Of a stretch of DNA of 30,765 nucleotides, positions 11,270 through 25,635 are shown in pieces. Location: IMG/VR virus record IMGVR_UViG_3300032312_000213, positions 1-30,765 of that record; one strand, given 5' to 3'. This DNA comes from a virus (lineage: Duplodnaviria; Caudoviricetes). How positions within the stretch are numbered: the stretch's first letter is position 1; each line of letters opens with the position of its first letter. The position numbers were made by a program, and so were the translations under genes. The notes under the pieces were generated by a model. That model was not told the origin of the DNA, ran no database searches, and was given only the letters and a program-made list of their open reading frames with translations.

Positions 11270-11839
11270 ATGTTTATTTTTGATGTAGAAACATTGGGTG
11301 TTGAATCAAATGCTGTAGTTCTTTCTGCAGCATTGATTCACTTTGACCCAGATCTACGACCAACTTATCAAGACATGTTAGACAATGCGTGCTTCATTAA
11401 GTTTGCAGCAAAGGAACAGATGGATGTTGGTCGTACTGTTTCAAAATCTACTCTTGCATGGTGGAAAGAACAACATGAGTATACTCGCAAAATATCATTG
11501 GATCCTTCTCGTGACGATGTGACTGTTGAGAATGGTGTCAAACAATTACAAGATTACATGACAAAGTATCCGAATGCAGATAAACAAACAATGTGGGCAC
11601 GAGGTTCGCTCGATCAACTTGTAATTGATTCATTGTGTGTTAAATTTGGCTTGCAAGAGATTACAGGGTATAATATGTGGAGAGATGTCCGAACTGCAGT
11701 CGATATTCTCTATGGTACTAGCAATGGATATGTTGAGGTTGATCACCCTCTGTTCCAACGACACAATGTTATTAAGCACCACCCTGTTCACGACTGCGCA
11801 CTGGACGCAATGCAACTAATGTACGGAAAAGCGACTTAA
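11270..11839 (+). CDS. DEDDh 3'-5' exonuclease (DexA-like)
   Basis: FDVETLG (ExoI), WARGSLD (ExoII), HHPVHDCALD (ExoIII). Confidence 0.8.
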   Translation: MFIFDVETLGVESNAVVLSAALIHFDPDLRPTYQDMLDNACFIKFAAKEQMDVGRTVSKSTLAWWKEQHEYTRKISLDPSRDDVTVENGVKQLQDYMTKYPNADKQTMWARGSLDQLVIDSLCVKFGLQEITGYNMWRDVRTAVDILYGTSNGYVEVDHPLFQRHNVIKHHPVHDCALDAMQLMYGKAT

Positions 11840-14340
11840 TGGAATTTTATACAAGCGTAGCACCCTATGGCGATAAGATGTTCGTCAGAGGTTACGAAAA
11901 TGGCAGACCATATATGCGTAAGGTAGATTTCTACCCTACGCTTTTTGTCACTTCTAAGTCCCCATCAAAGTACACCACATTGGATGGTCAGTATGTTGAT
12001 GAGATTAAACCTGGAACTATAAAAGAAACCAGAGACTTTGTTAAGAAGTATGACGATGTCGCAGGGTTCTCTGTTTACGGAAATACTAATTACGCATATC
12101 AATATATCAGCGATACTTACGATGGTGATGTCAATTGGGATATGGAACAGATTAAAGTTTGTACCATTGACATTGAAACATCAACTGAGTATGGATTCCC
12201 AGATATTCGCAGTGCCAATGAAGAGATTCTCTTAATTACTGTCAAGGATCTTCATTCCAAGAAGGTAGTAACATTTGGTTACTCACCATCAGGCGACAGC
12301 TACACCAACACTCGTAGTGATGTAACCTATCAAGCATACACTTCTGAGATGTCTATGCTTAAAGACTTTATGATTTGGTGGCAACAAAACTATCCTGATG
12401 TCATCACTGGTTGGAATACTGACTTCTTTGATATGCCGTATCTAATTAAACGAATCAGTCGTGAACTTGGTGAGTCGTTTGCCAAGAAGATTAGTCCATG
12501 GGGTTTAATCAATGAACGAAACACTTTCATTAAAGGTAGTGAAGAACTGCACTACGATATCTCTGGTATCTCTCAGCTAGACTATCTTGAACTTTACAAA
12601 AAGTATACATATCAAAAGCAAGAGTCATATCGTCTTGACTACATTGCCGAACAAGAACTCGGTGACAAGAAGAAAGAGAATCCAGGAGATACATTCAAAG
12701 ACTTTTACACTAAACATTGGCAAGACTTTGTTTCTTATAACATTCACGATGTGGAGTTAGTTGATAAACTCGAAGACAAGATGCGTTTGGTTGAACTTCA
12801 TCTGACTATGGCTTACAATGCCAAGATTAATCCAGAGGATGTTTACTCACAGGTTCGTATGTGGGACACTATCATCTATAATCACTTGCGCAAAAGTAAC
12901 ATTGTTATTCCAATGAAGGTTTCTAATGGTGGTAAGTCTGAACAATTTGAAGGTGCGTATGTTAAAGATCCAATCATCGGTCAGCATAAATGGATGGCAT
13001 CCTTTGACTTGAATTCTCTGTATCCTCACTTGATTATGCAGTACAATATCAGTCCAGAAACTCTTACAAGCGAGAAGATTCCTTGCACTGTTGACAAACT
13101 ACTTGCCAAAGAAGTTGATACTTCTTATGCAAAACGCAGAGACTTATCTTTGTCTGCAAATGGTTGGACATACCGTAAAGATGTCAAAGGGTTTATGCCT
13201 GAGTTGATGGAAACGATGTATGCAAATCGTTCTAAATTTAAGAAACAGATGTTGAAGATTCAGCAAGAATACGAACACGACAAGAGCAAGAAGCACTTGT
13301 TGAAAGACATCTCTCGTCTTAATAACTTGCAGATGGCGATGAAGATTGCACTTAACTCTGCTTATGGTGCAATGGGTAATCAATACTTCCGTTACTTTGA
13401 CATTCGTATGGCAGAGGGAATTACACTTTCGGGTCAGTTATCAATCCGTTGGATGGCAGAGAAACTCAATGCCATGCTAAACAAGACACTCAAGACACAA
13501 GACAAAGACTTCGTTGTTGCGATTGATACTGACTCAATTTATTTAACGCTGGAAGACCTAATTGAAAAGGTTGCTGGTGATAAAGACACAGAAGGTAAGA
13601 TCAAGTATATGGATCGTGTCTGTGAAGAAGTTATTCAACCATTCATTGATCAAGGCTATGAAGAACTAGCCGAATACATGAATGCATTTGGTCAGAAGAT
13701 GCAAATGAAACGAGAGGTTCTTGCTGACAAAGCCATCTGGACTGCCAAGAAACGCTATGTTATTAATGTTCATAACTCAGAAGGAGTTCAATTTGCGAAA
13801 CCTAAGATCAAAGTTATGGGTCTTGAGATGGTTAAGTCATCTACACCTGCGGTTATTCGTGATAAACTTAGGGATTCATTGGAAGTTATTCTTCATGGAA
13901 CTGAGAAGGATCTACACAAATATGTGTTGGACTATAAGAAGGAATTCGTCAACTTACCAGTTGAAGAGATAGCATTCCCTCGTTCTTGTAATGGCATCAA
14001 ACAGTATGCTGGTTCTCCTGTTTATATGAAGGGTACTCCGATTCAAGTGCGTGGTGCATTGTTGTTTAATCATCACTGCAAGCGACTGGGTATTAGTAAC
14101 AAGTATCAAGCGATCCGTGATGGAGATAAGTTAAAGTTTGTTTACCTACGAACACCTAATCCGATTCAGGAAGATGTGATTGCATTTACTACTGTGCTAC
14201 CCAAGGAATTGGGATTGCATACATATATTGACTACGATAAAATGTATGAGAAGGTATTCACTGACGCACTTCAGATTGTTATCGAATCACTAGGATGGAA
14301 GACGGCAGAAGAAACTTCACTGGAGGATTTCTTTGGATAA
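11839..14340 (+). CDS. gp43: Family B DNA polymerase
   Basis: DIET exonuclease motif, GWNTDFFD, SFDLNSLYPH, KIALNSAYG, IDTDS, KKRY; C-terminal SLEDFFG. Confidence 0.97.
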   Translation: MEFYTSVAPYGDKMFVRGYENGRPYMRKVDFYPTLFVTSKSPSKYTTLDGQYVDEIKPGTIKETRDFVKKYDDVAGFSVYGNTNYAYQYISDTYDGDVNWDMEQIKVCTIDIETSTEYGFPDIRSANEEILLITVKDLHSKKVVTFGYSPSGDSYTNTRSDVTYQAYTSEMSMLKDFMIWWQQNYPDVITGWNTDFFDMPYLIKRISRELGESFAKKISPWGLINERNTFIKGSEELHYDISGISQLDYLELYKKYTYQKQESYRLDYIAEQELGDKKKENPGDTFKDFYTKHWQDFVSYNIHDVELVDKLEDKMRLVELHLTMAYNAKINPEDVYSQVRMWDTIIYNHLRKSNIVIPMKVSNGGKSEQFEGAYVKDPIIGQHKWMASFDLNSLYPHLIMQYNISPETLTSEKIPCTVDKLLAKEVDTSYAKRRDLSLSANGWTYRKDVKGFMPELMETMYANRSKFKKQMLKIQQEYEHDKSKKHLLKDISRLNNLQMAMKIALNSAYGAMGNQYFRYFDIRMAEGITLSGQLSIRWMAEKLNAMLNKTLKTQDKDFVVAIDTDSIYLTLEDLIEKVAGDKDTEGKIKYMDRVCEEVIQPFIDQGYEELAEYMNAFGQKMQMKREVLADKAIWTAKKRYVINVHNSEGVQFAKPKIKVMGLEMVKSSTPAVIRDKLRDSLEVILHGTEKDLHKYVLDYKKEFVNLPVEEIAFPRSCNGIKQYAGSPVYMKGTPIQVRGALLFNHHCKRLGISNKYQAIRDGDKLKFVYLRTPNPIQEDVIAFTTVLPKELGLHTYIDYDKMYEKVFTDALQIVIESLGWKTAEETSLEDFFG

Positions 14341-16265: not shown

Positions 16266-16584
16266 ACCTTATACTGTTGTCCAATCCAAATACAGTGGGC
16301 TGGATGCTATAAAGTTGACAGAACAACCATTTGAGGGTATAATCTACTCTTATGGTAAGATTGAATTTGAAGAGAATGAAGAGAATGACTCTTTGCATAT
16401 CAAGTTCGATTATGAGATACTGGAAAATGGTGGCAAGGGTATGACAGATAAAAAGCCATTCGAACAATACATTGGTAACATTCTTCAAGAATTGCTCCAT
16501 GAAGGTATCCGAGAAAATAATTTAGTTTACACAGGCGGAATTGATGAGAATAGAACAAAAGATTCTGACGAATCTAATTTATGA
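16258..16584 (+). CDS. Hypothetical protein at the gp40 position
   Basis: 108 aa ORF between uvsX and 41; similarity to gp40 is positional only. Confidence 0.65.
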   Translation: MSKPYTVVQSKYSGLDAIKLTEQPFEGIIYSYGKIEFEENEENDSLHIKFDYEILENGGKGMTDKKPFEQYIGNILQELLHEGIRENNLVYTGGIDENRTKDSDESNL

Positions 16585-17935
16585 TGAGCAGTATTGTCGT
16601 AAAGTAATTCCATTCATTAAGAAAGAGTATTTTGCCGATAGAAAAGAAGCCATCCTTGCAGCACAAATTGTAGCATTCTTTAACGAATATAACAAACCTG
16701 CCACAAAGGATGTCCTTCAAATTGAAGTTGGGAATCGTAAAGATTTAACTGATAAAGAGTTAGCCGAACTTCAAGATTTTATCGGCAAGTTGGAACATGA
16801 ACCAGTCAATGATGATTGGATGTTACAACATACAGAGAAGTTTTGTAAGGATCGTGCAGTTTATAATGCGATTCTTAATTCAATTTCTATTATTGATGGT
16901 AGGGATAAGAACCATACTCAAGATGCGATCCCATCAATCTTGAGTGATGCGTTATCAGTCACATTTGACAACCATGTTGGTCATGATTACTTGGATGACC
17001 ATGATGCTCGCTTTGACTTTTATCACAGGATTGAAGAGAAAGTATCCTTTGACTTGGATATGTTCAATAAGATTACTAAAGGTGGTCTGTCCAAGAAAAC
17101 TCTGAACATTGCACTAGCAGGTACTGGTGTTGGTAAATCATTGTTTATGTGTCACATGGCTGCAGGAGTTTTGACACAGGGCAAAAATGTATTATACATA
17201 ACTATGGAAATGGCAGAAGAGCGAATCGCAGAGCGTATTGATGCGAACCTCTTAAACCTAACCATGGATGAATTGAAAGTTGTAGACAGAGATATTTACG
17301 AAGGTCGTATTGATAAGATTGCCAAGAAGACACAAGGTAAACTTATCATTAAAGAATATCCAACTGCAGGTGCTCACACTGGTCACTTTCGTGCATTATT
17401 GGAAGAGTTAAAGTTGAAGCGTGACTTTAAACCAGATATTATCTACATTGATTATCTGAATATTTGCGCAAGTCAACGAATGAAGCAAGGTGGCTCTGTA
17501 AACTCTTATACATATATTAAGAGCATTGCAGAAGAAATTCGTGGTTTGGCAGTTGAGTATAATGTTCCTATTGTATCAGCTACTCAAACTACTCGTGGTG
17601 GATTCACTAACTCGGATCCAGGACTTGAAGATACTTCTGAATCTTTTGGTTTGCCAGCAACTGCTGACTTTATGTTTGCTTTGGTCAGCAATGAAGAACT
17701 AGAAGGATTGAATCAAATTATTGTTAAACAATTAAAGAATCGTTACAATGACCCAAGTTACTTTAAGCGATTTGTGGTTGGAATTGATAGAGCGAAGATG
17801 AAATTGTATGATGTTGAAGCAAGTGCTCAAACAGGACTAGCTGATGCAGGACAAGATGACGATGAACCAATGTTTGATAAAAGTAATTTTGGTCGCAGAC
17901 AAAAAGCAGAATCGTTCGAAGGATTTAAGTTTTAG
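16544..17935 (+). CDS. gp41: DnaB-like replicative helicase
   Basis: LAGTGVGKS, YITMEMAEE, IKEYPT, IDYLNI, SATQTTR, TSESFGLPATAD, KQLKNRY. Confidence 0.96.
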   Translation: MRIEQKILTNLIYDEQYCRKVIPFIKKEYFADRKEAILAAQIVAFFNEYNKPATKDVLQIEVGNRKDLTDKELAELQDFIGKLEHEPVNDDWMLQHTEKFCKDRAVYNAILNSISIIDGRDKNHTQDAIPSILSDALSVTFDNHVGHDYLDDHDARFDFYHRIEEKVSFDLDMFNKITKGGLSKKTLNIALAGTGVGKSLFMCHMAAGVLTQGKNVLYITMEMAEERIAERIDANLLNLTMDELKVVDRDIYEGRIDKIAKKTQGKLIIKEYPTAGAHTGHFRALLEELKLKRDFKPDIIYIDYLNICASQRMKQGGSVNSYTYIKSIAEEIRGLAVEYNVPIVSATQTTRGGFTNSDPGLEDTSESFGLPATADFMFALVSNEELEGLNQIIVKQLKNRYNDPSYFKRFVVGIDRAKMKLYDVEASAQTGLADAGQDDDEPMFDKSNFGRRQKAESFEGFKF

Positions 17936-17943
17936 GAGAAAAT

Positions 17944-19263
17944 ATGACTAAGGTAATCGTAGCAAAACAGAAACATGATATGACTCATATGCTTGGACAA
18001 TTTCCAGATGAGAGTCATTATGATTTCCTCATTGAAGAGGACTGTGATGTTTATATGCCAGAAATTCCTGGACATCCAGAAATGACATACTCTGAAGAGA
18101 GGATTGTTTTAAAGTTCCGTAAGAATTATTTTACACAGGAACAACAAGATCAAGCATATATTGGTCTGCGTGAAGCAGCAACTGAAACACAGAACAGAGG
18201 TATGGCTGCTGGTCCAAGAGCAGAGAAGTTGGGTAATCGTGAGTGGGTCACTGAGTATGAATACGCAGTGATTGACTACTTTACAAATCCAGGTGCAAAC
18301 TTGTATGGTGATGATCCAATTGAAGACATTCGTGCAGAGTTTAGAGGTAAGAAAGAATCACCATCTACTCGTAACAATGTTTGGGGTATTCAAGCAGTTA
18401 AGAAAGATAACTTTGTTTTTGAAGATTGGGTTGATGCCACTAAGAATCTTTCTGTTGAAGAAATGAAGAAAGAAGTTAAGCGTATTGCCGACAAGTATGT
18501 ATGTCAGACTACCTATGCCAATGGTGTTATGTCTGGTATTGCTGGTTGGTTCGATCGTTATCCTCGTCTTCCTTATGGTCGTGCAACATCTTATACTGCT
18601 CGTGAACCAGAAAAGTTCGCAATGGCTTATCCATTCCTCCAGCAACTTGCACAAGGTTTCAAAGACTTGTTGCCATGGAGATATAATAATCAAATGGAAG
18701 CAGCAAAGAAAATGGATCCTCGTTTCTTAGTTCCTGAAACACCATTTACTACTGTTACTGTGAACAAGTCATTTAGAACTGCATGTCACTACGATGCAGG
18801 TGACTTGACTTCTGGTCTTTCCAATCTATTGACTCTAACAAACAATGGTAACTACAAAGGTTGTTATTTGGTTGCACCAGAGTATCGTGTTGCTGTCAAT
18901 CCAAGACCTGGAGATTTGCTATTGATTAACAATCACGAAGTCATGCATGGTAATACTCAGATTGAATTGCTTGATGATGTGGCAGAAAGAATTTCATTGG
19001 TTGTTTACTTCCGTGAAAAGATGCTTGAGTTGGGTTCAAAAGAATACGAAGATTGCCGATATGATTATGTTGAATCTCGTAGAACCAATAAAGAACACGC
19101 AGGACATATTGGTCGTAATCTTTGGAATGGTATCGATCCAGGAATGTGGGATAGTAAAGAGTGGTATGATTACCTAGAGTCTAAACTTGGCACTGAAGTG
19201 TTAAACAAATACCATCCACCAAAGACTACAACAGTTAATGCACTTGAGGAGTTCTTCGGATAA
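17944..19263 (+). CDS. TET/JBP-family 2OG-Fe(II) dioxygenase (putative 5-methylpyrimidine DNA oxidase)
   Basis: FTTVTVNKSFRTACHYDAGD (HxD), GDLLLINNHEVMHGNT (distal His), ERISLVVYFREKM (2OG-binding Arg); C-terminal ALEEFFG. Confidence 0.78.
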   Translation: MTKVIVAKQKHDMTHMLGQFPDESHYDFLIEEDCDVYMPEIPGHPEMTYSEERIVLKFRKNYFTQEQQDQAYIGLREAATETQNRGMAAGPRAEKLGNREWVTEYEYAVIDYFTNPGANLYGDDPIEDIRAEFRGKKESPSTRNNVWGIQAVKKDNFVFEDWVDATKNLSVEEMKKEVKRIADKYVCQTTYANGVMSGIAGWFDRYPRLPYGRATSYTAREPEKFAMAYPFLQQLAQGFKDLLPWRYNNQMEAAKKMDPRFLVPETPFTTVTVNKSFRTACHYDAGDLTSGLSNLLTLTNNGNYKGCYLVAPEYRVAVNPRPGDLLLINNHEVMHGNTQIELLDDVAERISLVVYFREKMLELGSKEYEDCRYDYVESRRTNKEHAGHIGRNLWNGIDPGMWDSKEWYDYLESKLGTEVLNKYHPPKTTTVNALEEFFG

Positions 19264-19955
19264 TGTGTAGCGTAATTGGAGCCATTATCAAAGAACCATC
19301 CGCAGAGGATTTCTTAATGCTACATCGTGTGTTCCTTGAGTCTAAGATTCGAGGGATGCATGCTACTGGAATCTCCTATGTTAAACATGGGAAGATTATA
19401 ACAGACAAGCGTCCAGTTCCAGCTGACCAATTTCCATTTAACTTTCCAAGTTATGTGAACGAAGATGGTAGTCTTTATCTAATTGGTCACTGTCGTTACA
19501 GTACGAGCGATTTAGAATTCAATCAACCAATTGCCAATGAGAACCTTTCGGTAGTTCACAATGGAGTTATCACTCAAGAGTTACCTGAGAAGTGGAAAGA
19601 ACTCTATGGTTATGATTGTGAAACTAAAAACGATACTGAATTGATTTTACATACAGCAGAAGATTGTATCAGTCCATTATTAAGATGGAAAGATTCTAGT
19701 CTTGCAGTTGTAGAGTTACATGTTGATAAAGTTATTAGGTTTTATCGCAATGGCAAGCGACCATTATACTTGACAAATATCCCAAATGGATGTATAATTA
19801 CTTCTACCTCTGATGTTCCAAAACGAGCAGAGGTTGGAGGATTCCCTATCAATACCTTGATGAATCACTATATTACATTTGATGCAAATCTTGCAATGAC
19901 AATAGAAAAAGAAATCATTGAAGATGCTACGGATCTACAATATGAATTTTGTTAA
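19263..19955 (+). CDS. Class II (Ntn) glutamine amidotransferase domain protein
   Basis: N-terminal Cys2 (MCSVIG), RGMHATG, GHCRYST, NQP, VHNGVI, NDTE, RPLY. Confidence 0.88.
   Translation: MCSVIGAIIKEPSAEDFLMLHRVFLESKIRGMHATGISYVKHGKIITDKRPVPADQFPFNFPSYVNEDGSLYLIGHCRYSTSDLEFNQPIANENLSVVHNGVITQELPEKWKELYGYDCETKNDTELILHTAEDCISPLLRWKDSSLAVVELHVDKVIRFYRNGKRPLYLTNIPNGCIITSTSDVPKRAEVGGFPINTLMNHYITFDANLAMTIEKEIIEDATDLQYEFC
19770..19798 (+). promoter_or_regulatory. Perfect sigma70 consensus promoter inside the amidotransferase CDS
   Basis: TTGACA-17 nt-TATAAT, with TG directly before the hexamer. Confidence 0.6.
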
Positions 19956-20583
19956 TTCAACGAGGGTTGAAGAGTTAATTAAAAACAGTCCAGCTGGTAA
20001 GAATACAAAATTCTTATCGGCTGCACATTCATTGTGGTATCGTTTTCACAACTATGACAAAGCACCACCACTGGCTTATGAAATTAATGGTGAAGTTGTT
20101 TGTTTAATCTTTGCCACATTTAATCGTGATAATTATAGTAACCTATACGAGATTGTTACACTTGAAGGAAATGAGGGTAAGGGTTATGCATCAAAGTGTT
20201 GGGATATGTGGATTGATTATGCTGTGAATGAAAGAAAGATGACTAGACTAAAAATGTCCTGCACTCCTTCTTCAGTTACATGGCACTATAAGAATGGTTT
20301 GATTTGGTGGGCAGTAGATCCAACAGGTTCACTTCGTTCAGACCAACCATTGTTCCCAACAAGAGCAGAGCAGATTGCTTATCGTGATAATGCTATTGTT
20401 AATCCGTTACAAGCACTACCACCATATAAAGCACGAGAACAATTTCGTGCCGAAGGTTTAGAATCGTATAAGTGGGGTGAGAAGAAGAAAGCAAAAACAC
20501 AAACTGCAATTGATGCAGTGGGTAAAGCATGGCTTCGGGATGCTTTAATGGAACAACCTTCACTTGAAGAATTTTTATTATAA
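19942..20583 (+). CDS. GNAT-fold acetyltransferase-like protein
   Basis: NLYEIVTLEGNEGKGYAS (acetyl-CoA loop-like), WHYKNG; C-terminal SLEEFLL. Confidence 0.62.
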   Translation: MNFVNSTRVEELIKNSPAGKNTKFLSAAHSLWYRFHNYDKAPPLAYEINGEVVCLIFATFNRDNYSNLYEIVTLEGNEGKGYASKCWDMWIDYAVNERKMTRLKMSCTPSSVTWHYKNGLIWWAVDPTGSLRSDQPLFPTRAEQIAYRDNAIVNPLQALPPYKAREQFRAEGLESYKWGEKKKAKTQTAIDAVGKAWLRDALMEQPSLEEFLL

Positions 20584-21602
20584 TGGATTATCGTTTAGAA
20601 CAAAATCGTAGGGAAGCGTTTATTCGCTGGTATGCGTGGTCATTGAAGTATGATGATTGCGACCCAGCAGTATGGGCAACTAACTACCTACATAAAAGAT
20701 ATGAACATAACGATGAACAAAAGTTATGGTTATGTTGGTTGTATGGTAACACATACTATCTTCCAACTGCTTGGATTCTCATGAATGAGTTTCCTGACTT
20801 TGAGTTGGCCACTGTTGATCGTATGACTCAGTGGAATACTACCAACTACAAACGATTGCGTTATCAAACTGATACAAAGTGGAACAAGGGACATTTGCCA
20901 ACCATGTTTGCCTCTTATCAACAATTCATTGGCAATGCAACTCAAAGAGAAAAACTGGAGTCATTTTATGGATACAATGAGGAAGAGAACTTTGATAACT
21001 TGTGGCAAGGCACTAAGTCTAGCTTGCACAAGTTTGGTCGTTATAGTACTTGGTTTTATCTTCAGCATCTTAAGCATACCGCTGGTGTTCCTATCAATCC
21101 TACTTCTCTCATGTTGGACGATTATGATGGCTCTCGCTCTCATCGTAATGGATTACTTTATGCCATCGGACAAGAAAACAGTGTGGATAGAAAACTCACT
21201 GGAGTGGAGTATGCAAATCTTGAATCAAAAGCCAATGAGATTCTTGCAGAGACGAAAGCGAGATTTCCAGAACTCGCATCATCTATAGATTACTTTACAA
21301 TGGAAACTTGCTTGTGCTCATTTAAGAAAATCTTTAGAGCGAATCATGGCAGGTATCTTGGATATTATCTTGACAGACAAGCAGAAGAAATTATGCAATG
21401 TGAGAAAGACGGATGGTATGGTATTGACTGGGATGTTTTATGGCAATCTAGAAATGAAACCATTGATATAAGATTAGACCATAAAAATGGTATTGATAAA
21501 GATAGATTTAGTTCATTCCTTAACTCTGGTAAAATTGAGAACTTGGAATGGATGTTTGATGATGAAGAACCTGTTTTATTAGGATTGGAGATGTTTGCAT
21601 GA
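20583..21602 (+). CDS. alpha-glutamyl/putrescinyl thymine pyrophosphorylase-like (amino acid:DNA transferase, HhH-glycosylase fold)
   Basis: DCDP, KFGRYSTWFYLQHL (HhH-like), METCLCSFKK, YLGYYLDR; neighbours are a TET/JBP oxygenase and a P-loop kinase. Confidence 0.72.
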   Translation: MDYRLEQNRREAFIRWYAWSLKYDDCDPAVWATNYLHKRYEHNDEQKLWLCWLYGNTYYLPTAWILMNEFPDFELATVDRMTQWNTTNYKRLRYQTDTKWNKGHLPTMFASYQQFIGNATQREKLESFYGYNEEENFDNLWQGTKSSLHKFGRYSTWFYLQHLKHTAGVPINPTSLMLDDYDGSRSHRNGLLYAIGQENSVDRKLTGVEYANLESKANEILAETKARFPELASSIDYFTMETCLCSFKKIFRANHGRYLGYYLDRQAEEIMQCEKDGWYGIDWDVLWQSRNETIDIRLDHKNGIDKDRFSSFLNSGKIENLEWMFDDEEPVLLGLEMFA

Positions 21603-22024
21603 ACGATACAATTACATTAACTGCAAGTGGTGGGACTATGGATGATTTGGGTGTTATTACTACCACTGGAATTTCGCCACTAACAATGGGTGCTGCTGGA
21701 ACTTATACTATTTCCACCACTAGTGGAAGCACAATCACACTCGGTGTATCTGAAGAAGATATTTTAGAAACATGGGAAATGAATCGTGTGACAGTAGACC
21801 ATAAGGTACAAGAACATGAGTTGCTTAAACTCAAAGAAACTGTACCAACCTATGCAGATGAAATCAAGGAAAACTTGACAAAGACTGTTGCACGAGATAT
21901 AATGAAGAAAATAACATTCACGAAGAAACACGATAAAGATGCAGATGTGCACCACTTTATTGGTCGTGTATGGGTATTTACTGAAGACGAATTGAAGTCG
22001 CTTATTAGAGATGTGAAGGGTTGA
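21599..22024 (+). CDS. Hypothetical protein with Thr/Gly/Ser-rich N-terminus
   Basis: 141 aa ORF overlapping both neighbours inside the cluster. Confidence 0.65.
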   Translation: MNDTITLTASGGTMDDLGVITTTGISPLTMGAAGTYTISTTSGSTITLGVSEEDILETWEMNRVTVDHKVQEHELLKLKETVPTYADEIKENLTKTVARDIMKKITFTKKHDKDADVHHFIGRVWVFTEDELKSLIRDVKG

Positions 22025-22026
22025 TA

Positions 22027-22569
22027 ATGCGTAAGATTGTAGCTGTGGGTGGAAGTCCTGGAACTGGTAAAACTACATTGTTCCGTAAGTTCATGGAGAG
22101 CCATACTTGGGAGAAAGTCGAACCAAAGAAGATGCTCCCTGCACTCTATTGTAAAGAATTAGACTTATACATCCTAGGGAAGTACGAGGATGGAGAAACC
22201 TTTGCTGGAACGGATCGCCTTTCAATGGCAGTCCAACCCATTGCACAGGAGTTCGTTAAAGAGACTACCTCCAACATCCTATTTGAGGGGGATCGAATCT
22301 TTAATCAGTCTTTCTTAGAGTTTGCAATGAATCTACAGGAAGTTGATTTACAAGTGGTCTTCCTAAAAGCACCAAAAAGTGTCCTAGAACAGAGATATAA
22401 GGATCGTGGTTCTGACCAATCTGAGCAGTTCCTAAAAGGCAGGGAAACTAAATATAGTAATCTGCTGTCAAACTTCGATTTGATGCCCTATATTACTGAG
22501 TTCAATAACACTAACTTAGAGGAACAGGGGAAAGCACTAACATTCTTGGAGAAGCATCTAAGGGTGTAA
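22027..22569 (+). CDS. P-loop nucleotide kinase (putative 5-hydroxymethylpyrimidine DNA kinase)
   Basis: GGSPGTGKTT Walker A, GTDRLSM, LFEGDR, lid R..DRGS. Confidence 0.7.
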   Translation: MRKIVAVGGSPGTGKTTLFRKFMESHTWEKVEPKKMLPALYCKELDLYILGKYEDGETFAGTDRLSMAVQPIAQEFVKETTSNILFEGDRIFNQSFLEFAMNLQEVDLQVVFLKAPKSVLEQRYKDRGSDQSEQFLKGRETKYSNLLSNFDLMPYITEFNNTNLEEQGKALTFLEKHLRV

Positions 22570-22584: not shown

Positions 22585-23301
22585 ATGAAATACCTAGATT
22601 CGACAACTTTCGACTTTATGGAAATGCTCAATTTTCACGAGCGTCCATTTAGAGCAAAGTTCATACCTGTAAAAGTATGGAAAGACCTTGATAACTATCG
22701 CAACGATGGGAAGGGACTTTCCAACTACTTTAAGAAGTGGCGAACTAAGGTAGAATTCCGTCCAGAGCCAAGCAAATCCAAAACCTATAAAGAGTATGTT
22801 GCAACTGGAGGAGAATACGATCCAAATGAACGACAATGTGCTCTACACATCTATTCAACTAATTTTGATAAGCACAAATTTTCAGACAAGTCTTGGAATA
22901 AATTCAAGTATCGTGTGATACAAATCCAGATGCATGAGTTAATACACTTTATGCAGTACGATCGTCGTAGCGATATTTGGCATAATTATGTTGTTCCCTT
23001 TAAAAAGGTTCAACATGAAAAGAAAAACTTAGAGAGAAAGTACCTTTCTGAGTTTGACGAAATTCAAGCATATGCACACTGTGTTTATATGGACTTTAAA
23101 ACCTATAGACCAAACATCTCAGTAGAAGAACTCCTGTCTCGTGCAAAAGACTATAAGGATTCTAAGACTCTACACTATTTCCTAAAAACCTTCGATTACG
23201 ACTATAAGAACAATGTTGCTATCCCAAAGATTATGCAACAAGTTATGAAGTGGGATCGTAAGTATCAACGAGCGCAACGAGCCTACAGGAAGCCTAAATA
23301 A
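22585..23301 (+). CDS. Hypothetical protein with HExxH zincin-like motif
   Basis: MHELIHFMQY followed by YLSEFDEIQAYAH. Confidence 0.6.
   Translation: MKYLDSTTFDFMEMLNFHERPFRAKFIPVKVWKDLDNYRNDGKGLSNYFKKWRTKVEFRPEPSKSKTYKEYVATGGEYDPNERQCALHIYSTNFDKHKFSDKSWNKFKYRVIQIQMHELIHFMQYDRRSDIWHNYVVPFKKVQHEKKNLERKYLSEFDEIQAYAHCVYMDFKTYRPNISVEELLSRAKDYKDSKTLHYFLKTFDYDYKNNVAIPKIMQQVMKWDRKYQRAQRAYRKPK
23294..23300 (+). promoter_or_regulatory. Late-promoter-like CTAAATA
   Basis: Immediately upstream of the 23325 gene block. Confidence 0.5.
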
Positions 23302-23324
23302 TACCAGAACGCTTTCTGGAGATA

Positions 23325-24386
23325 TTGATGGGTAAATTGAACGAAGGAGATGTTATTGAAGGCATCTTCACTATTGGGTTATCACTATACATTGCTCACA
23401 ACAAGGTTGAGAAGTACAAACTCAACAAAATTAGAACCGAAGTAGACCCACAGATGTTTAGTACTGGGCGATTTACTTATACGGTTGCAGAAAATCTCCC
23501 CAAGCAAAAAGGTTCTAAACCAACTGATACATTTACAGTTAGGTTTGAATTAAGGTTAAAAACAGCCACCACCGCAGAAGCGTTTGGTGATCATTATCAA
23601 TTGTTGTATAAGTCTTCCAAAGACATTGGTAATTTAGATAAGAAGATTGACCAGTTTATCAACTCTATAAATTACGGTAACTTTGCAAGACGAGTTAACC
23701 AAGTTACATCTAGATTCCTTGATAATAATAAGGGTGAACGAGTTATGTTTACTGTTATTGGCGATGGTATAGAAGGTGAACAATCTGGTGGTGAAGTTAA
23801 AGGTGATGTCCGTTTAGAAGTATGGGCAGAAATAGGTAATAAGAAACAGAAGATTGATGCTGGAACTATTCCATTTTCACTAAAGTCAGAAAACAAAACA
23901 GTGGCTAGTTTATCACCATATCATGGGATGTTAAATATGGCTAAGGCTTTAGGTATTACTTGGGATGCTGAAGAGAAATATTCTAGATTAGCTGGAATGT
24001 TTAGAACTGATGCAGAGAAAAAAGAAAAGTTCAAAATGATTCGTGCAATGTATAACGATCTAAAAGAACATATTGTAGCAGCATCGTCTGGCGCAACATT
24101 TTCAAACAATGCTTACAGTTTCTTAGAAAAGAATTTATTTGGAACAGACTTTGCTGATGTTATTGATATTCAAAAGGGTAATGTTAAAGAAGTTACACAT
24201 AATAAATTTAAGACTATGTCTACCAAATCTAAATTATATGTTAAGACTGGTGGTGATGGTGGTAACAATTTGGTTTTTCACGATAAAGAAAACCAGAAAC
24301 CAATGTTTCAGATAAGAGCTAAATTAAGAGAACAGGCAAACGAAGCAAAGTTTTACCTTGAAATAGGTAAAGGTTTGTATGACTAA
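23325..24386 (+). CDS. Hypothetical protein, possible PD-(D/E)xK nuclease-like fold
   Basis: NEGDVIEG, KGDVRL, PFSLKS spacing suggests a restriction-endonuclease-like core; SD ggag. Confidence 0.5.
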   Translation: MMGKLNEGDVIEGIFTIGLSLYIAHNKVEKYKLNKIRTEVDPQMFSTGRFTYTVAENLPKQKGSKPTDTFTVRFELRLKTATTAEAFGDHYQLLYKSSKDIGNLDKKIDQFINSINYGNFARRVNQVTSRFLDNNKGERVMFTVIGDGIEGEQSGGEVKGDVRLEVWAEIGNKKQKIDAGTIPFSLKSENKTVASLSPYHGMLNMAKALGITWDAEEKYSRLAGMFRTDAEKKEKFKMIRAMYNDLKEHIVAASSGATFSNNAYSFLEKNLFGTDFADVIDIQKGNVKEVTHNKFKTMSTKSKLYVKTGGDGGNNLVFHDKENQKPMFQIRAKLREQANEAKFYLEIGKGLYD

Positions 24387-24396
24387 GAGTAAAACT

Positions 24397-25635
24397 ATGT
24401 TAAATTTTAAATCATTTCTTAAAGAAGAAATCCTAAACGAAGACTTGCTTTTAGAAGCAGAATCTTCATCAGTAGAATCAGATGATAAAGGTAAACTCCA
24501 TGAGTTACTTTTAGCAAAGTATCTGCATCCTCAAACCAAACTTCCAGAACATCATCGTTCATTCTCTGAGAATCCAGACCACGCTGGTACACCAGAGCAA
24601 GTACATGACAAGCTAAAGGAAAAGATTCCACCTGCAGCTTACAACGAGATCGATGGACATGCCAAGCAATCTGCTGAAGCATTTAAGCAAAGCATGAAAG
24701 ACCAAGGACATATTGGTGACCATGCTCACATCGGTAATGTTCATTGGACATCCAACGCTGACAAACCAAATGTTGCTGGTGACCACGAAAAGACTACTGG
24801 TGTTAAAGATGTAAACTCCAACGCTGACTTAATCGTTACGCTACACGACAAAGAAGGTAAGCCAGTTGGACACCATGGCATCTCTGCCAAATATGGTTCA
24901 CAAGAGCCGAACTATCGTAATCCAGGACTTGATGCATTAGAGAAAACTTCTAAGTTACCAGCTGGATCTCTTGGTGCTCCAATGCAACACCATACTGATT
25001 CTATGGAGAAACTAGGTTACACTGGTTCTGCTGATCAAAGAAATATTCAGACTAAAATTGATGAGATGCCTATCAACGACATTCGTCAGAAACATGCTGA
25101 GGGACTTGCTTCAATTCAAGCAGGTAAGAAACTATCAGGCAAAAAGAAAATAATGCATGAGCACTTGGAGAAGTTTATTCAAGCACACGATGCATTACCA
25201 GAGAAGAAGCAAGAAGCGTTCCGTCAACAAGCAGCACAAAGAGCAGAAACTGCTCGTGCGTCTAATCTTGCTGCAAGAACTCAGATGACGCAATCATTTG
25301 CTGCAGGTATGTCAAAGCACAAACCAGAAGAATTAGCAAATATTGTTCGTCAGAATGTATCACCAAATACGCACATTCCTCATACAGTTGTTCATAGTAA
25401 GGTTAAGGATAGTGGAGAAGCAGAATCCGTTATTAAACCAATGCACAGTTTAGCAGACGAACATCTAGCACAATTTAAGCCAGACTCTTTGCATGTAGTT
25501 CCAGGAAAAGGAACATCGGTTACTATTAAAGGTATCCATGCTAAGACTAATAAGCCAGTAGTTGCTGCTCGTTACACAATCAAGTCCTCCTCTGGTGCGC
25601 ATAAGAGCGCAGTAGGGACTTTTAAACTCCAGTAA
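24397..25635 (+). CDS. His-rich hypothetical protein, possible PD-(D/E)xK-like fold, with internal-protein-like N-terminus
   Basis: MLNFKSFLKEE..LLLE; KGKLHELL, NADLIV, GISAKY. Confidence 0.55.
   Translation: MLNFKSFLKEEILNEDLLLEAESSSVESDDKGKLHELLLAKYLHPQTKLPEHHRSFSENPDHAGTPEQVHDKLKEKIPPAAYNEIDGHAKQSAEAFKQSMKDQGHIGDHAHIGNVHWTSNADKPNVAGDHEKTTGVKDVNSNADLIVTLHDKEGKPVGHHGISAKYGSQEPNYRNPGLDALEKTSKLPAGSLGAPMQHHTDSMEKLGYTGSADQRNIQTKIDEMPINDIRQKHAEGLASIQAGKKLSGKKKIMHEHLEKFIQAHDALPEKKQEAFRQQAAQRAETARASNLAARTQMTQSFAAGMSKHKPEELANIVRQNVSPNTHIPHTVVHSKVKDSGEAESVIKPMHSLADEHLAQFKPDSLHVVPGKGTSVTIKGIHAKTNKPVVAARYTIKSSSGAHKSAVGTFKLQ

Follow-up and report, generated by a model that had tools for sequence, protein, structure and literature searches.

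Gene sets of the kind analysed here have already been published, while no product of such GATase/amidoligase cassettes, and thus no base that they make, was found reported in the literature. Contigs that combine a TET/JBP enzyme, a kinase and an aGPT-Pplase without a dUMP hydroxymethylase have been described (Lee 2021, PMC8989533, Fig. 2, sequences 22–25), with a predicted route that is likewise post-replicative and leads from 5hmU to a kinase and an amino acid:DNA transferase (AADT). The same paper describes co-associated amidoligase and glutamine amidotransferase (GATase) domains whose function it leaves unexplained; the part of it available to us proposes no GATase product or role and mentions no clamp tails. 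According to the available part of a later study (O'Toole 2026, PMC13229309), clade C1 enzymes oxidise thymine and are linked with GATases (~11% of mined contigs), P-loop kinases and AADTs, and GNATs occur in ~7% of contigs. Its clade C1 5mYOX neighbourhoods share with our locus a TET/JBP enzyme, a GATase (PF13522/PF13537), a kinase (PF18751), an AADT (PF18724) and the lack of a C5-methyltransferase. An earlier note on this DNA had presented the enzyme combination and its route as a new idea; both papers precede it.

Phage PaMx11 (gp46 AADT, gp47 FAD lyase, gp48 GNAT, gp49 kinase) has in common with our locus the AADT fold, an ETxxC motif, a GNAT and the predicted final base. It uses glycine and the FAD lyase, and a thymidylate-synthase-family gene lies beside its cluster, whereas our locus has a TET enzyme and a GATase, no detected FAD lyase or dUMP hydroxymethylase, replaced glycine-binding residues and a GNAT of remote likeness. 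The acetyltransferase step that the note gave for PaMx11 is correct, but the FAD lyase is needed as well, and the activated intermediate is the monophosphate, 5-PmdU, rather than the pyrophosphate named there. Caulobacter phage Cr30 and Mycobacterium phage Magpie (cluster B) also keep TET, ADDT and kinase together, with no match to the window-type GATase profile or GNAT; Magpie has ParB, and Cr30 has a TAGT-like glycosyltransferase and an inositol-1-phosphate synthase. To this background we add a sister cassette with a swapped GNAT, interleaved AADT and GATase trees, a contrast with phage Simon, replaced glycine-binding residues and clamp-type tails.

A conserved cassette behind the replicative helicase

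The window, as we call the whole stretch of 30,765 nucleotides, carries six plus-strand ORFs (17944..22569) for a TET/JBP dioxygenase, a GATase, a GNAT, an AADT, a 141-aa protein and a P-loop kinase, in that order. The TET gene starts 8 bases past the stop of a gp41-type replicative helicase (16541..17935, plus strand), and successive ORFs overlap by 1, 17, 1, 4 and 4 bases. The source is an uncultured and widespread T4-like phage clade, and the window's form of the cassette (type A), like its GNAT, was found in no cultured phage. Co-occurrence was counted in the best 80 of 330 TET relatives (69–99% identical), at loci with enough downstream DNA: the GATase is present in 77/78, the GNAT in 65/65, the AADT in 53/53 and the kinase in 26/26, and all 46 loci that hold the five enzymes keep them in the window's order. 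The helicase lies upstream of TET in 71/71 loci, and the single GATase exception (L073) has a different gene in the slot after TET. Inserts occur between TET and GATase in 9/78 loci and between GNAT and AADT in 8/65, with none between GATase and GNAT (0/71).

Coordinates, overlaps and conserved order in close relatives bear out the tight coupling that the earlier note saw behind the helicase, the survey of relatives that it proposed finds the genes co-occurring, and its five enzyme assignments agree with Pfam, motif, family-profile and fold matches. Its pathway of six genes comes down to five enzymes, because the 141-aa ORF (21599..22024, plus strand), which has a T/G/S-rich N-terminus, matches nothing in Pfam or other family searches. 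This ORF is dispensable, being present in 35/40 loci among the same 80 relatives; a ParB-like or enzymatic role for it was rejected for want of a family match and its absence from 5/40 loci.

Enzymes, clamp-type tails and the substrate base

The TET/JBP Fe/2OG dioxygenase (439 aa; 17944..19263, plus strand) is a predicted thymine dioxygenase. It groups with TET/JBP, as the note supposed, matching PF12851 (Tet_JBP) with an E-value of 1.8e-26 and 92.8 bits against a cut-off of 34.9, and the residues of the HxD..H..R motif (H282-x-D284, H335 and R349) are invariant in 10 aligned TET sequences. It shares 46–49% identity with proteins from phages Cr30 and DLP6. The enzymes tested in the available part of O'Toole 2026 are ~300–330 aa long, whereas the window's enzyme has a long insertion and an extension; inspection by eye shows motifs in common with the published sequences.

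Gene content makes thymine the likely substrate, at the stage of finished DNA: the two complete relatives (G001 and G002) encode ThyX, while dUMP hydroxymethylase, C5-methyltransferase and ParB went undetected in both. These were the searches that the note had proposed, and they favour its post-replicative logic: family searches found no ThyA-fold dUMP hydroxymethylase in G001 or G002, no C5-methyltransferase in any of 5 relatives, two of them complete, and no ParB (PF02195) in the scanned window ORFs or in any of 5 relatives. Of the two bases that the note allowed, thymine is therefore retained as likely, and 5mC loses ground with the missing methyltransferase, which is co-encoded as a C5-cytosine enzyme in phage 5mC-dioxygenase clades A/B (Burke 2021). 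Family searches can overlook weak members, as PF13522 missed the GATase of one relative (G007). For G001, the enzyme absences, including that of C5-methyltransferase, agree with a direct scan against Pfam that covered 150 of its 182 ORFs of at least 90 aa. In contrast to ParB-dependent clade C1 thymine dioxygenases, the enzyme here stands in a T4-like replication context with no ParB found; some ParB-less clade C1 enzymes are inactive in E. coli, according to the available part of O'Toole 2026 (PMC13229309).

The AADT (aGPT-Pplase2, 339 aa; 20583..21602, plus strand) matches PF18724 (ADDT) with an E-value of 2.3e-22 and 80.3 bits against a cut-off of 26.2, in line with the note's assignment, and belongs to a wide group of 1456 AADT-like protein clusters, distant families included. 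Its model (pLDDT 90.8) finds PaMx11 gp46 (8Z2M) as top fold match (probability 1.00, TM 0.54/0.62, E 0.015), although comparing it with gp46 alone by sequence profile yielded no alignment. The ETxLCxxK motif noticed earlier is invariant in 44 AADTs (E241, T242, C245 and K248), and by motif alignment E241-T242-C245 correspond to gp46 E243-T244-C247. M6 gp51 and gp46 are glycine:DNA transferases. In gp46, W146 and K150 bind glycine (PMC11472151); by motif alignment, as distinct from structural superposition, they are replaced by Y154 and F158 in 44/44 sequences. The P-loop nucleotide kinase 3 (182 aa; 22021..22569, plus strand) is a predicted 5hmU-DNA kinase that matches PF18751 (Ploopntkinase3) above cut-off (E 5e-9), is 42% identical to a Cr30 protein and has distant matches in cluster B mycobacteriophages. 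The Pfam scan gave it no match to PF18748, the family of phage Simon's kinase.

The GATase (230 aa; 19263..19955, plus strand) is a stand-alone class II (Ntn, Cys2) domain without a synthase or isomerase domain, and matches GATase_6 (PF13522) above cut-off (E 4.5e-10). Its identification as an Ntn-Cys2 glutaminase holds: the model (pLDDT 94) has the Ntn fold, and the glutamine-binding and catalytic residues, among them C2, R78, N100-G101 and D124, are all invariant in 44 sequences. Aligned with GlmS, its HCRYST corresponds to HTRWAT, alongside HNG and DTE, and its invariant Y79 falls on GlmS W74, which we take to be the ammonia-channel gate. The best folds are PurF (2.5e-10), GlmS (7.5e-10) and EgtC (2.3e-9), with identities of 18–20% to PurF and GlmS vs 10–11% to EgtC.

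The GNAT-fold acyltransferase is 214 aa long when read from the ATG at 19939 (19939..20583, plus strand), the ORF finder having placed the start at a TTG at 19918. At 19.7 bits (E 1.1e-3), its Acetyltransf_1 match falls just short of the cut-off of 20.7. A profile built from 28 family sequences does, however, match GNATs of solved structure (best E 8.2e-9), which upholds the note's assignment; glucosamine-phosphate acetyltransferase is among the weak matches, and the likeness to PaMx11 gp48 is remote (probability 84%, 17% identity). Natural GATase-GNAT fusions (P0121 and P0123, the only fusions found; P0122 was rejected as one), together with the lack of inserts between the two genes, point to a partnership of the GATase with the GNAT rather than with the AADT; gene overlap and an embedded promoter may, however, also account for the missing inserts.

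That promoter-like site, a perfect TTGACA-N17-TATAAT (19770..19798, plus strand), lies inside the GATase gene, 140 bases 5' of the GNAT ATG, and is perfect in 59/66 type A loci; none was found before the type B GNAT (0/76; see below) or before the AADT (0/50). The window holds 5 such sites with at most one mismatch against 0.52 expected, and no T4 late promoter (TATAAATA). A second perfect site, at 21875 within the 141-aa ORF, was rejected as a conserved kinase promoter, with 1/40 loci having it at one mismatch or fewer.

Several of these enzymes end like the phage's DNA polymerase, whose tail is SLEDFFG (14317..14337, plus strand). We scored tails with a model trained on 8 polymerase tails only, which replaced an earlier pattern drawn up after the motif had been seen, and used a cut-off of 15 of our own choosing. 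The TET tail ALEEFFG (19240..19260, plus strand) ranks second after DNA polymerase among 43 ORF ends in the window, 211 in G001 and 219 in G002, and the GNAT tail SLEEFLL ranks third in each. Scores of at least 15 are reached by the TET tail in 76/76 type A and 61/63 type B cases and by the GNAT tail in 66/66; the AADT tail GLEMFA is weaker (rank 7/211 and 7/219; at least 15 in 11/50 and 22/62), and the GATase has no such tail. The tails of T4/RB69 gp43, gp55 and gp33, likewise short, acidic-hydrophobic and C-terminal, bind the sliding clamp gp45 according to the available part of PMC2988020. By tail likeness, the TET enzyme, the GNAT and, less clearly, the AADT are likely to ride gp45. T4 alpha-glucosyltransferase, which co-purifies with gp45 (PMC13216743), is one DNA-modifying enzyme at the clamp, whereas in our cassette the tail occurs on two or three enzymes that belong to a single pathway.

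A sister cassette and phage Simon

Type B cassettes encode an amidoligase and a different GNAT in 81/81 loci, and the window-type GNAT in 0/81. Amidoligases are textbook partners of glutaminases, and the GATase adjoins the amidoligase in 77/81 type B loci. The amidoligase (229 relatives) is absent from the window and L001–L103, as well as from 5/5 genomes searched. Some type B cassettes, but no type A ones, contain an inserted GIY-YIG/ParB-like ORF. On trees, AADTs of the two types interleave with 5 changes, of which at least 2 are forced by strong branches in this quick version of the tree, and the GATases interleave with 5 changes, 1 of them forced. This interleaving argues that the two types share a GATase/AADT core on which the cap can be exchanged.

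Phage Simon encodes an AADT, an FAD lyase 41.6% identical to PaMx11 gp47, an amidoligase of the same family as that of type B (25%, pairwise E 7e-18), a kinase and a dUMP hydroxymethylase, with no match to the window-type GATase profile. An FAD/DAO enzyme is absent from G000, G001, G002 and G007 in a search that found Simon's. This one genome is as expected if the GATase and the FAD lyase are alternative ways to one and the same aminomethyl intermediate; searches for further loci resembling Simon or PaMx11 returned 0 and 2, one of the latter being PaMx11 itself.

A proposed route and its alternatives

The cassette very probably hypermodifies thymine after replication. The product may be 5-(acetylaminomethyl)uracil at some thymines of newly replicated phage DNA, its nitrogen predicted to come from glutamine, a claim for and against which we see the chances as evenly balanced. 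The TET enzyme would oxidise thymine to 5hmU on DNA, as suggested by its family, its intact metal ligands and the lack of a detected dUMP hydroxymethylase or C5-methyltransferase; thymine oxidation is demonstrated for other clade C enzymes in the available part of O'Toole 2026 (PMC13229309). The kinase would then make 5-phosphomethyl-dU, from which the AADT, whose catalytic residues are conserved, would form an exocyclic methylene through Cys245, a mechanism demonstrated for the M6, ViI and PaMx11 enzymes. In the least certain step, ammonia released by the GATase would attack and replace the phosphate, giving 5-aminomethyl-dU; no demonstration of an AADT using free ammonia was found in the literature. 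The GNAT would finally acetylate the amine. The earlier note favoured this chemistry too, with ammonia going to the transferase and an acetyl cap. Evidence that speaks against the route includes the GATase-GNAT fusions, the place of the type B GATase next to an amidoligase, the fold score of EgtC close behind those of PurF and GlmS, and the remote likeness of the GNAT to PaMx11 gp48. As a whole, we picture a clamp-riding assembly line in which the glutaminase serves as the DNA transferase's ammonia subunit, the route to 5-AcNmdU is shorter and wholly post-replicative, and a shared aminomethyl-dU receives an exchangeable cap (acetyl in type A, a ligase-added acetylated aminoacyl group in type B). 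We give this reading a probability of roughly one in three.

A different order of events, in which the AADT attaches a non-glycine amino acid and GATase ammonia then amidates its carboxylate through the amidoligase (type B) or the GNAT-fold protein (type A), would suit the GATase-GNAT fusions, the GATase beside the amidoligase and the mutual exclusion of amidoligase and window-type GNAT. Characterised AADTs transfer amino acids or putrescine (available part of Lee 2021, PMC8989533). We nevertheless consider this order unlikely, since type A lacks an ATP-dependent ligase that could activate the carboxylate and yet keeps its GATase intact, the amidoligase family occurs in Simon without a window-type GATase, and the GATases do not sort by cassette type. 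Neither found in our searches nor known to us is a precedent for GNAT-catalysed amidation with ammonia. EgtC, in EgtA/EgtC chemistry, cuts off a glutamyl group, and its place near PurF and GlmS among the top GATase folds brings up another scheme, which strikes us as doubtful: a gamma-glutamyl compound, produced in type B by the amidoligase and obtained in type A from the host (glutathione, for instance), would be transferred by the AADT; the Ntn enzyme would next remove the glutamyl group, leaving a free amine for the GNAT to acetylate. AADTs do take a thiol in vitro (a beta-mercaptoethanol adduct), and the GATase-GNAT fusion would make sense if both enzymes acted in turn on a single adduct, the GNAT bringing the clamp-type tail that is missing from the GATase. 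The lower identity to EgtC and the alignment of Y79 with GlmS W74 argue against it, and it offers no reason why a change of ligase should bring a change of GNAT type but none of AADT.

The base or the purpose could also differ from the assembly-line reading, with 5mC supplied by the host or an undetected methylase, or with an undetected activator and a few regulatory sites in place of defence. The available part of O'Toole 2026 (PMC13229309) describes activity on both T and 5mC, a dependence on ParB, and oxidation that is partial and biased by sequence, and its tested sequences in part 2 of 4 of Dataset S11 do not include the 439-aa TET subfamily; ParB was also not found in type A. With C5-methyltransferase found in 0/5 relatives, two of them complete, and the AADT and kinase families known from thymine pathways, this appears improbable. 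Hardly credible is a GATase and GNAT that form an unrelated, GlmS/GNA1-like hexosamine pair merely sharing the operon: PHROG and GenBank labels name GlmS, and glucosamine-phosphate acetyltransferase appears among the GNAT matches, but the GATase has no isomerase domain, the polymerase-like GNAT tail is universal in the 66 sequences, and the GATase follows TET in nearly every locus, L073 carrying a different gene.

By analogy, the modification is likely to protect the phage DNA from host nucleases. The clade is abundant, with 330 TET relatives in IMG/VR, and offers two natural versions of the cassette, five-gene and six-gene, that differ by one module. The clamp tails also hint at a reason why enzymes of this sort might seem inactive in E. 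coli when gp45 is absent or when they are tagged at the C-terminus. If true, the assembly-line reading would make a base within DNA the target of a glutamine-dependent amination and would provide a means of placing primary amines on ordinary thymine-containing DNA.

A conserved cassette for probable thymine hypermodification

The cassette is a real, conserved system, very probably for post-replicative thymine hypermodification, of a kind already published but with its product unreported. It lies in a 30.8 kb fragment of a T4-like phage, the full length of its record, in which polymerase, UvsX, helicase, clamp loader and ligase are found. The six tightly coupled ORFs claimed in the earlier note are present as described, joined via short overlaps. 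Five are enzymes by family: a TET/JBP oxygenase (Pfam Tet_JBP, E 1.8e-26), a class II glutamine amidotransferase (GATase; GATase_6, E 4.5e-10), a GNAT (below the Pfam cut-off at E 1.1e-3, but E 8.2e-9 for a family profile against solved GNATs), an amino acid:DNA transferase (AADT; ADDT, E 2.3e-22) and a P-loop kinase (Ploopntkinase3, E 5e-9). The sixth, a 141-aa ORF between AADT and kinase, matched nothing in family searches and is dispensable: of 40 informative loci, 5 lack it. Downstream of the kinase, three conserved ORFs of 238, 353 and 418 aa (window 22585-25635) have no family, the 238-aa one carrying a zinc protease-like HELIH motif.

Among informative loci of the best 80 of 330 TET relatives, the GATase follows the TET in 77 of 78, with GNAT in 65/65, AADT in 53/53 and kinase in 26/26, counts that are not independent events because these relatives are close kin. 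The sole exception is locus L073, where a 335-aa gene (11314-12318) without Pfam match takes the place of the GATase behind the same TET (72% identical). We take this gene to resemble a glucosyltransferase, and the pair possibly represents a base J-like route. The TET also adjoins other modification-type genes in DLP6, Cr30 and C48C1. The cultured Caulobacter phage Cr30 (L082, 7001-13474) carries this TET subfamily with an AADT, a TAGT-like glycosyltransferase and an inositol-1-phosphate synthase, and a kinase is nearby.

Several loci carry additional genes. A 2OG-Fe(II) oxygenase lies between TET and GATase in 9/78 loci (L006:9193-9801, PF13759, and eight others). Radical SAM genes of 454-485 aa, either accessory or encoding a further tailoring step, separate AADT and kinase in some loci with the window's arrangement, hereafter type A (L005:6777-8198, PF04055; L048:6230-7591; L049:13029-16351; L056:13725-15152). 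Directly 5' of the AADT, optional genes are endonuclease-like and ~225-240 aa in type A (L005:4702-5376 and other loci); in many loci of a sister cassette, type B, they are ~430 aa with a GIY-YIG-like look and a weak ParB_N domain (L104:10100-11395). Both are probably homing endonucleases.

Sigma-70 consensus sites on the plus strand are perfect at window 16315, 19770, 21875 and 25662 and have one mismatch at 2250; three lie within coding sequence. The site at 19770, inside the GATase gene and 140 bases upstream of the GNAT ATG, matches the consensus perfectly in 59 of 66 type A loci. Transcription of the second half of the cassette probably starts from a promoter of its own. The site before the helicase is also conserved (perfect in 41/53 type A loci), that in the 141-aa ORF is not conserved across type A loci, and no site of this type precedes the type B GNAT (GNAT_B) or the AADT.

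The earlier note knew of no characterization of this combination. Full-text literature searches returned no report of a product for any GATase-containing cluster, but the cassette kind and the TET-kinase-AADT idea are already in print, and published figures, supplements or Iyer 2013 may show the same neighbourhood. Lee 2021 predicts that TET_JBP feeds kinase and AADT and names amidoligase and glutamine-amidotransferase domains as neighbours without explanation (PMC8989533). Burke 2021 places a kinase and an aG/PT-PPlase beside TETs (PMC8256090). O'Toole 2026 demonstrates that clades C1 and C2 oxidise T, and associates GATases, kinases and AADTs with the subclass that depends on ParB (PMC13229309).

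Substrate and timing of modification

Two relatives with complete genomes, G001 (163.6 kb) and G002 (170.6 kb), served for whole-genome questions. The earlier note had proposed looking for a dUMP hydroxymethylase, a thymidylate synthase and a C5-methyltransferase. Genome searches, which can miss true members (the GATase of relative G007 was missed at first look), found no ThyA-fold enzyme, and therefore no dUMP hydroxymethylase, and no ParB or C5-methyltransferase in five relatives, two of them complete; ThyX is present in 5/5. A direct Pfam scan at E <= 1e-4, covering 150 of the 182 ORFs in G001 that reach 90 aa, with structural genes omitted, gave the same absences. Together with ThyX, these absences make it likely that the phage copies its DNA with normal T, which is oxidised only later. 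Of the two substrates suggested earlier, T is thus favoured, while 5mC is disfavoured by the missing C5-methyltransferase.

C-terminal tails bear on where these enzymes act. By a score trained on the core of eight polymerase tails (own cut-off 15), the TET and GNAT ends rank second and third after the polymerase among 43, 211 and 219 ORF ends in the window, G001 and G002, and the AADT end about seventh. Tails reach the cut-off in 76/76 type A and 61/63 type B TETs, 66/66 GNATs of the window's kind, 7/76 GNAT_B, and 11/50 type A and 22/62 type B AADTs; GATases (0/146), kinases (0/94) and amidoligases (0/82) have none. Polymerase-like tails of T4/RB69 proteins bind the sliding clamp gp45 (PMC2988020), which co-purifies with T4 alpha-glucosyltransferase (PMC13216743). 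The tails and these precedents support action of the TET and the GNAT on DNA in the wake of the replication fork, via predicted gp45 binding. The window's own gp45 gene (2319-2976) is split by an apparent frameshift near 2656-2672, an assembly error or real; the intact protein of G001 matches its two frames at 89% and 85% identity. Directly 5' lies a 109-aa ORF (1918-2247), where G001 has a dATP/dGTP diphosphohydrolase (PF18909).

A proposed route from thymine to a capped amine

The ORF at 20583, which the earlier note took for an aGPT-PPlase-type transferase, has borne out that assignment through its ADDT match and its fold: the top structural match of its model is the AADT gp46 of phage PaMx11 (prob 1.00, TM 0.54/0.62, E 0.015), and sequence comparison with gp46 gave no alignment. 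The catalytic E-T-x-x-C is retained in 44/44. In gp46, glycine is bound by W146 and K150 (PMC11472151); a motif alignment places the invariant Y154 and F158 there, making glycine an unlikely nucleophile, although these residues do not name the nucleophile and other AADTs differ at these positions too.

The GATase keeps Cys2, Arg78, Asn100-Gly101 and Asp124, aligns with GlmS, and in a fold search is closest to PurF and GlmS, with EgtC next and close. In the mechanism we consider best, at about even odds (roughly 0.5), the TET would convert T to 5-hydroxymethyluracil on DNA after replication, the kinase would convert this to 5-phosphomethyl-dU, aminomethyl-dU would form from the latter with ammonia from glutamine, and a final step would yield acetylaminomethyl-dU.

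Two other, less likely roles for the GATase are suggested by its neighbourhood. Its ammonia might instead amidate an amino-acid adduct, which we regard as unlikely, or it might perform an EgtC-like deglutamylation followed by acetylation, which seems slightly less likely still. In favour of both, and against the mechanism above, are the GATase-GNAT fusion proteins P0121 and P0123 (44% and 52% identity in the GATase halves; from 7999 candidates) and the lack of inserts at the GATase|GNAT junction (0/71, versus 9/78 at TET|GATase and 8/65 at GNAT|AADT). The same holds for a glutaminase adjoining an amidoligase, the usual pair for amidation.

A sister cassette and a probable exchange of the cap

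In locus L104, reached by a search with a fused protein, GATase and AADT are separated by genes for an amidoligase (E 0.007 to PF12224, a weak match) and for another GNAT. Across 81 amidoligase loci, many short and with L104 and L105 being one contig, GNAT_B accompanies the amidoligase in all and the window's GNAT in none; a GATase was seen in 77 of them, a TET in 75, an AADT in 70 and a kinase in 63. No amidoligase was found in the window, L001-L103 or the five genomes searched.

An amidoligase of the same family occurs in the cultured phage Simon, whose unannotated cluster (L185, PQ683277.1, 2864-10543) encodes an AADT, an FAD lyase 41.6% identical to PaMx11 gp47, the amidoligase, an LMW phosphatase, a kinase and a dUMP hydroxymethylase; a GATase profile search of Simon gave no match. 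The product of gp47 is 5-aminomethyl-dU, so that on the simplest reading of this one-genome contrast the amidoligase would acylate that amine, and GATase together with AADT would yield it directly. Searches for further loci of this kind brought none that extended the contrast. The Simon cluster may make a new, acylated form of aminomethyl-dU. An amidoligase relative in Vibrio phage 2.275.O (L186, 5866-11074) adjoins 7-deazaguanine/queuosine genes and an Ntn hydrolase.

The GNATs of the two types are remotely related to each other (prob 97%, 20% identity), and the AADTs of types A and B interleave on the tree, as do the GATases. Judged from these trees, the GATase/AADT core is common to both types, and the cap is the unit that is exchanged.
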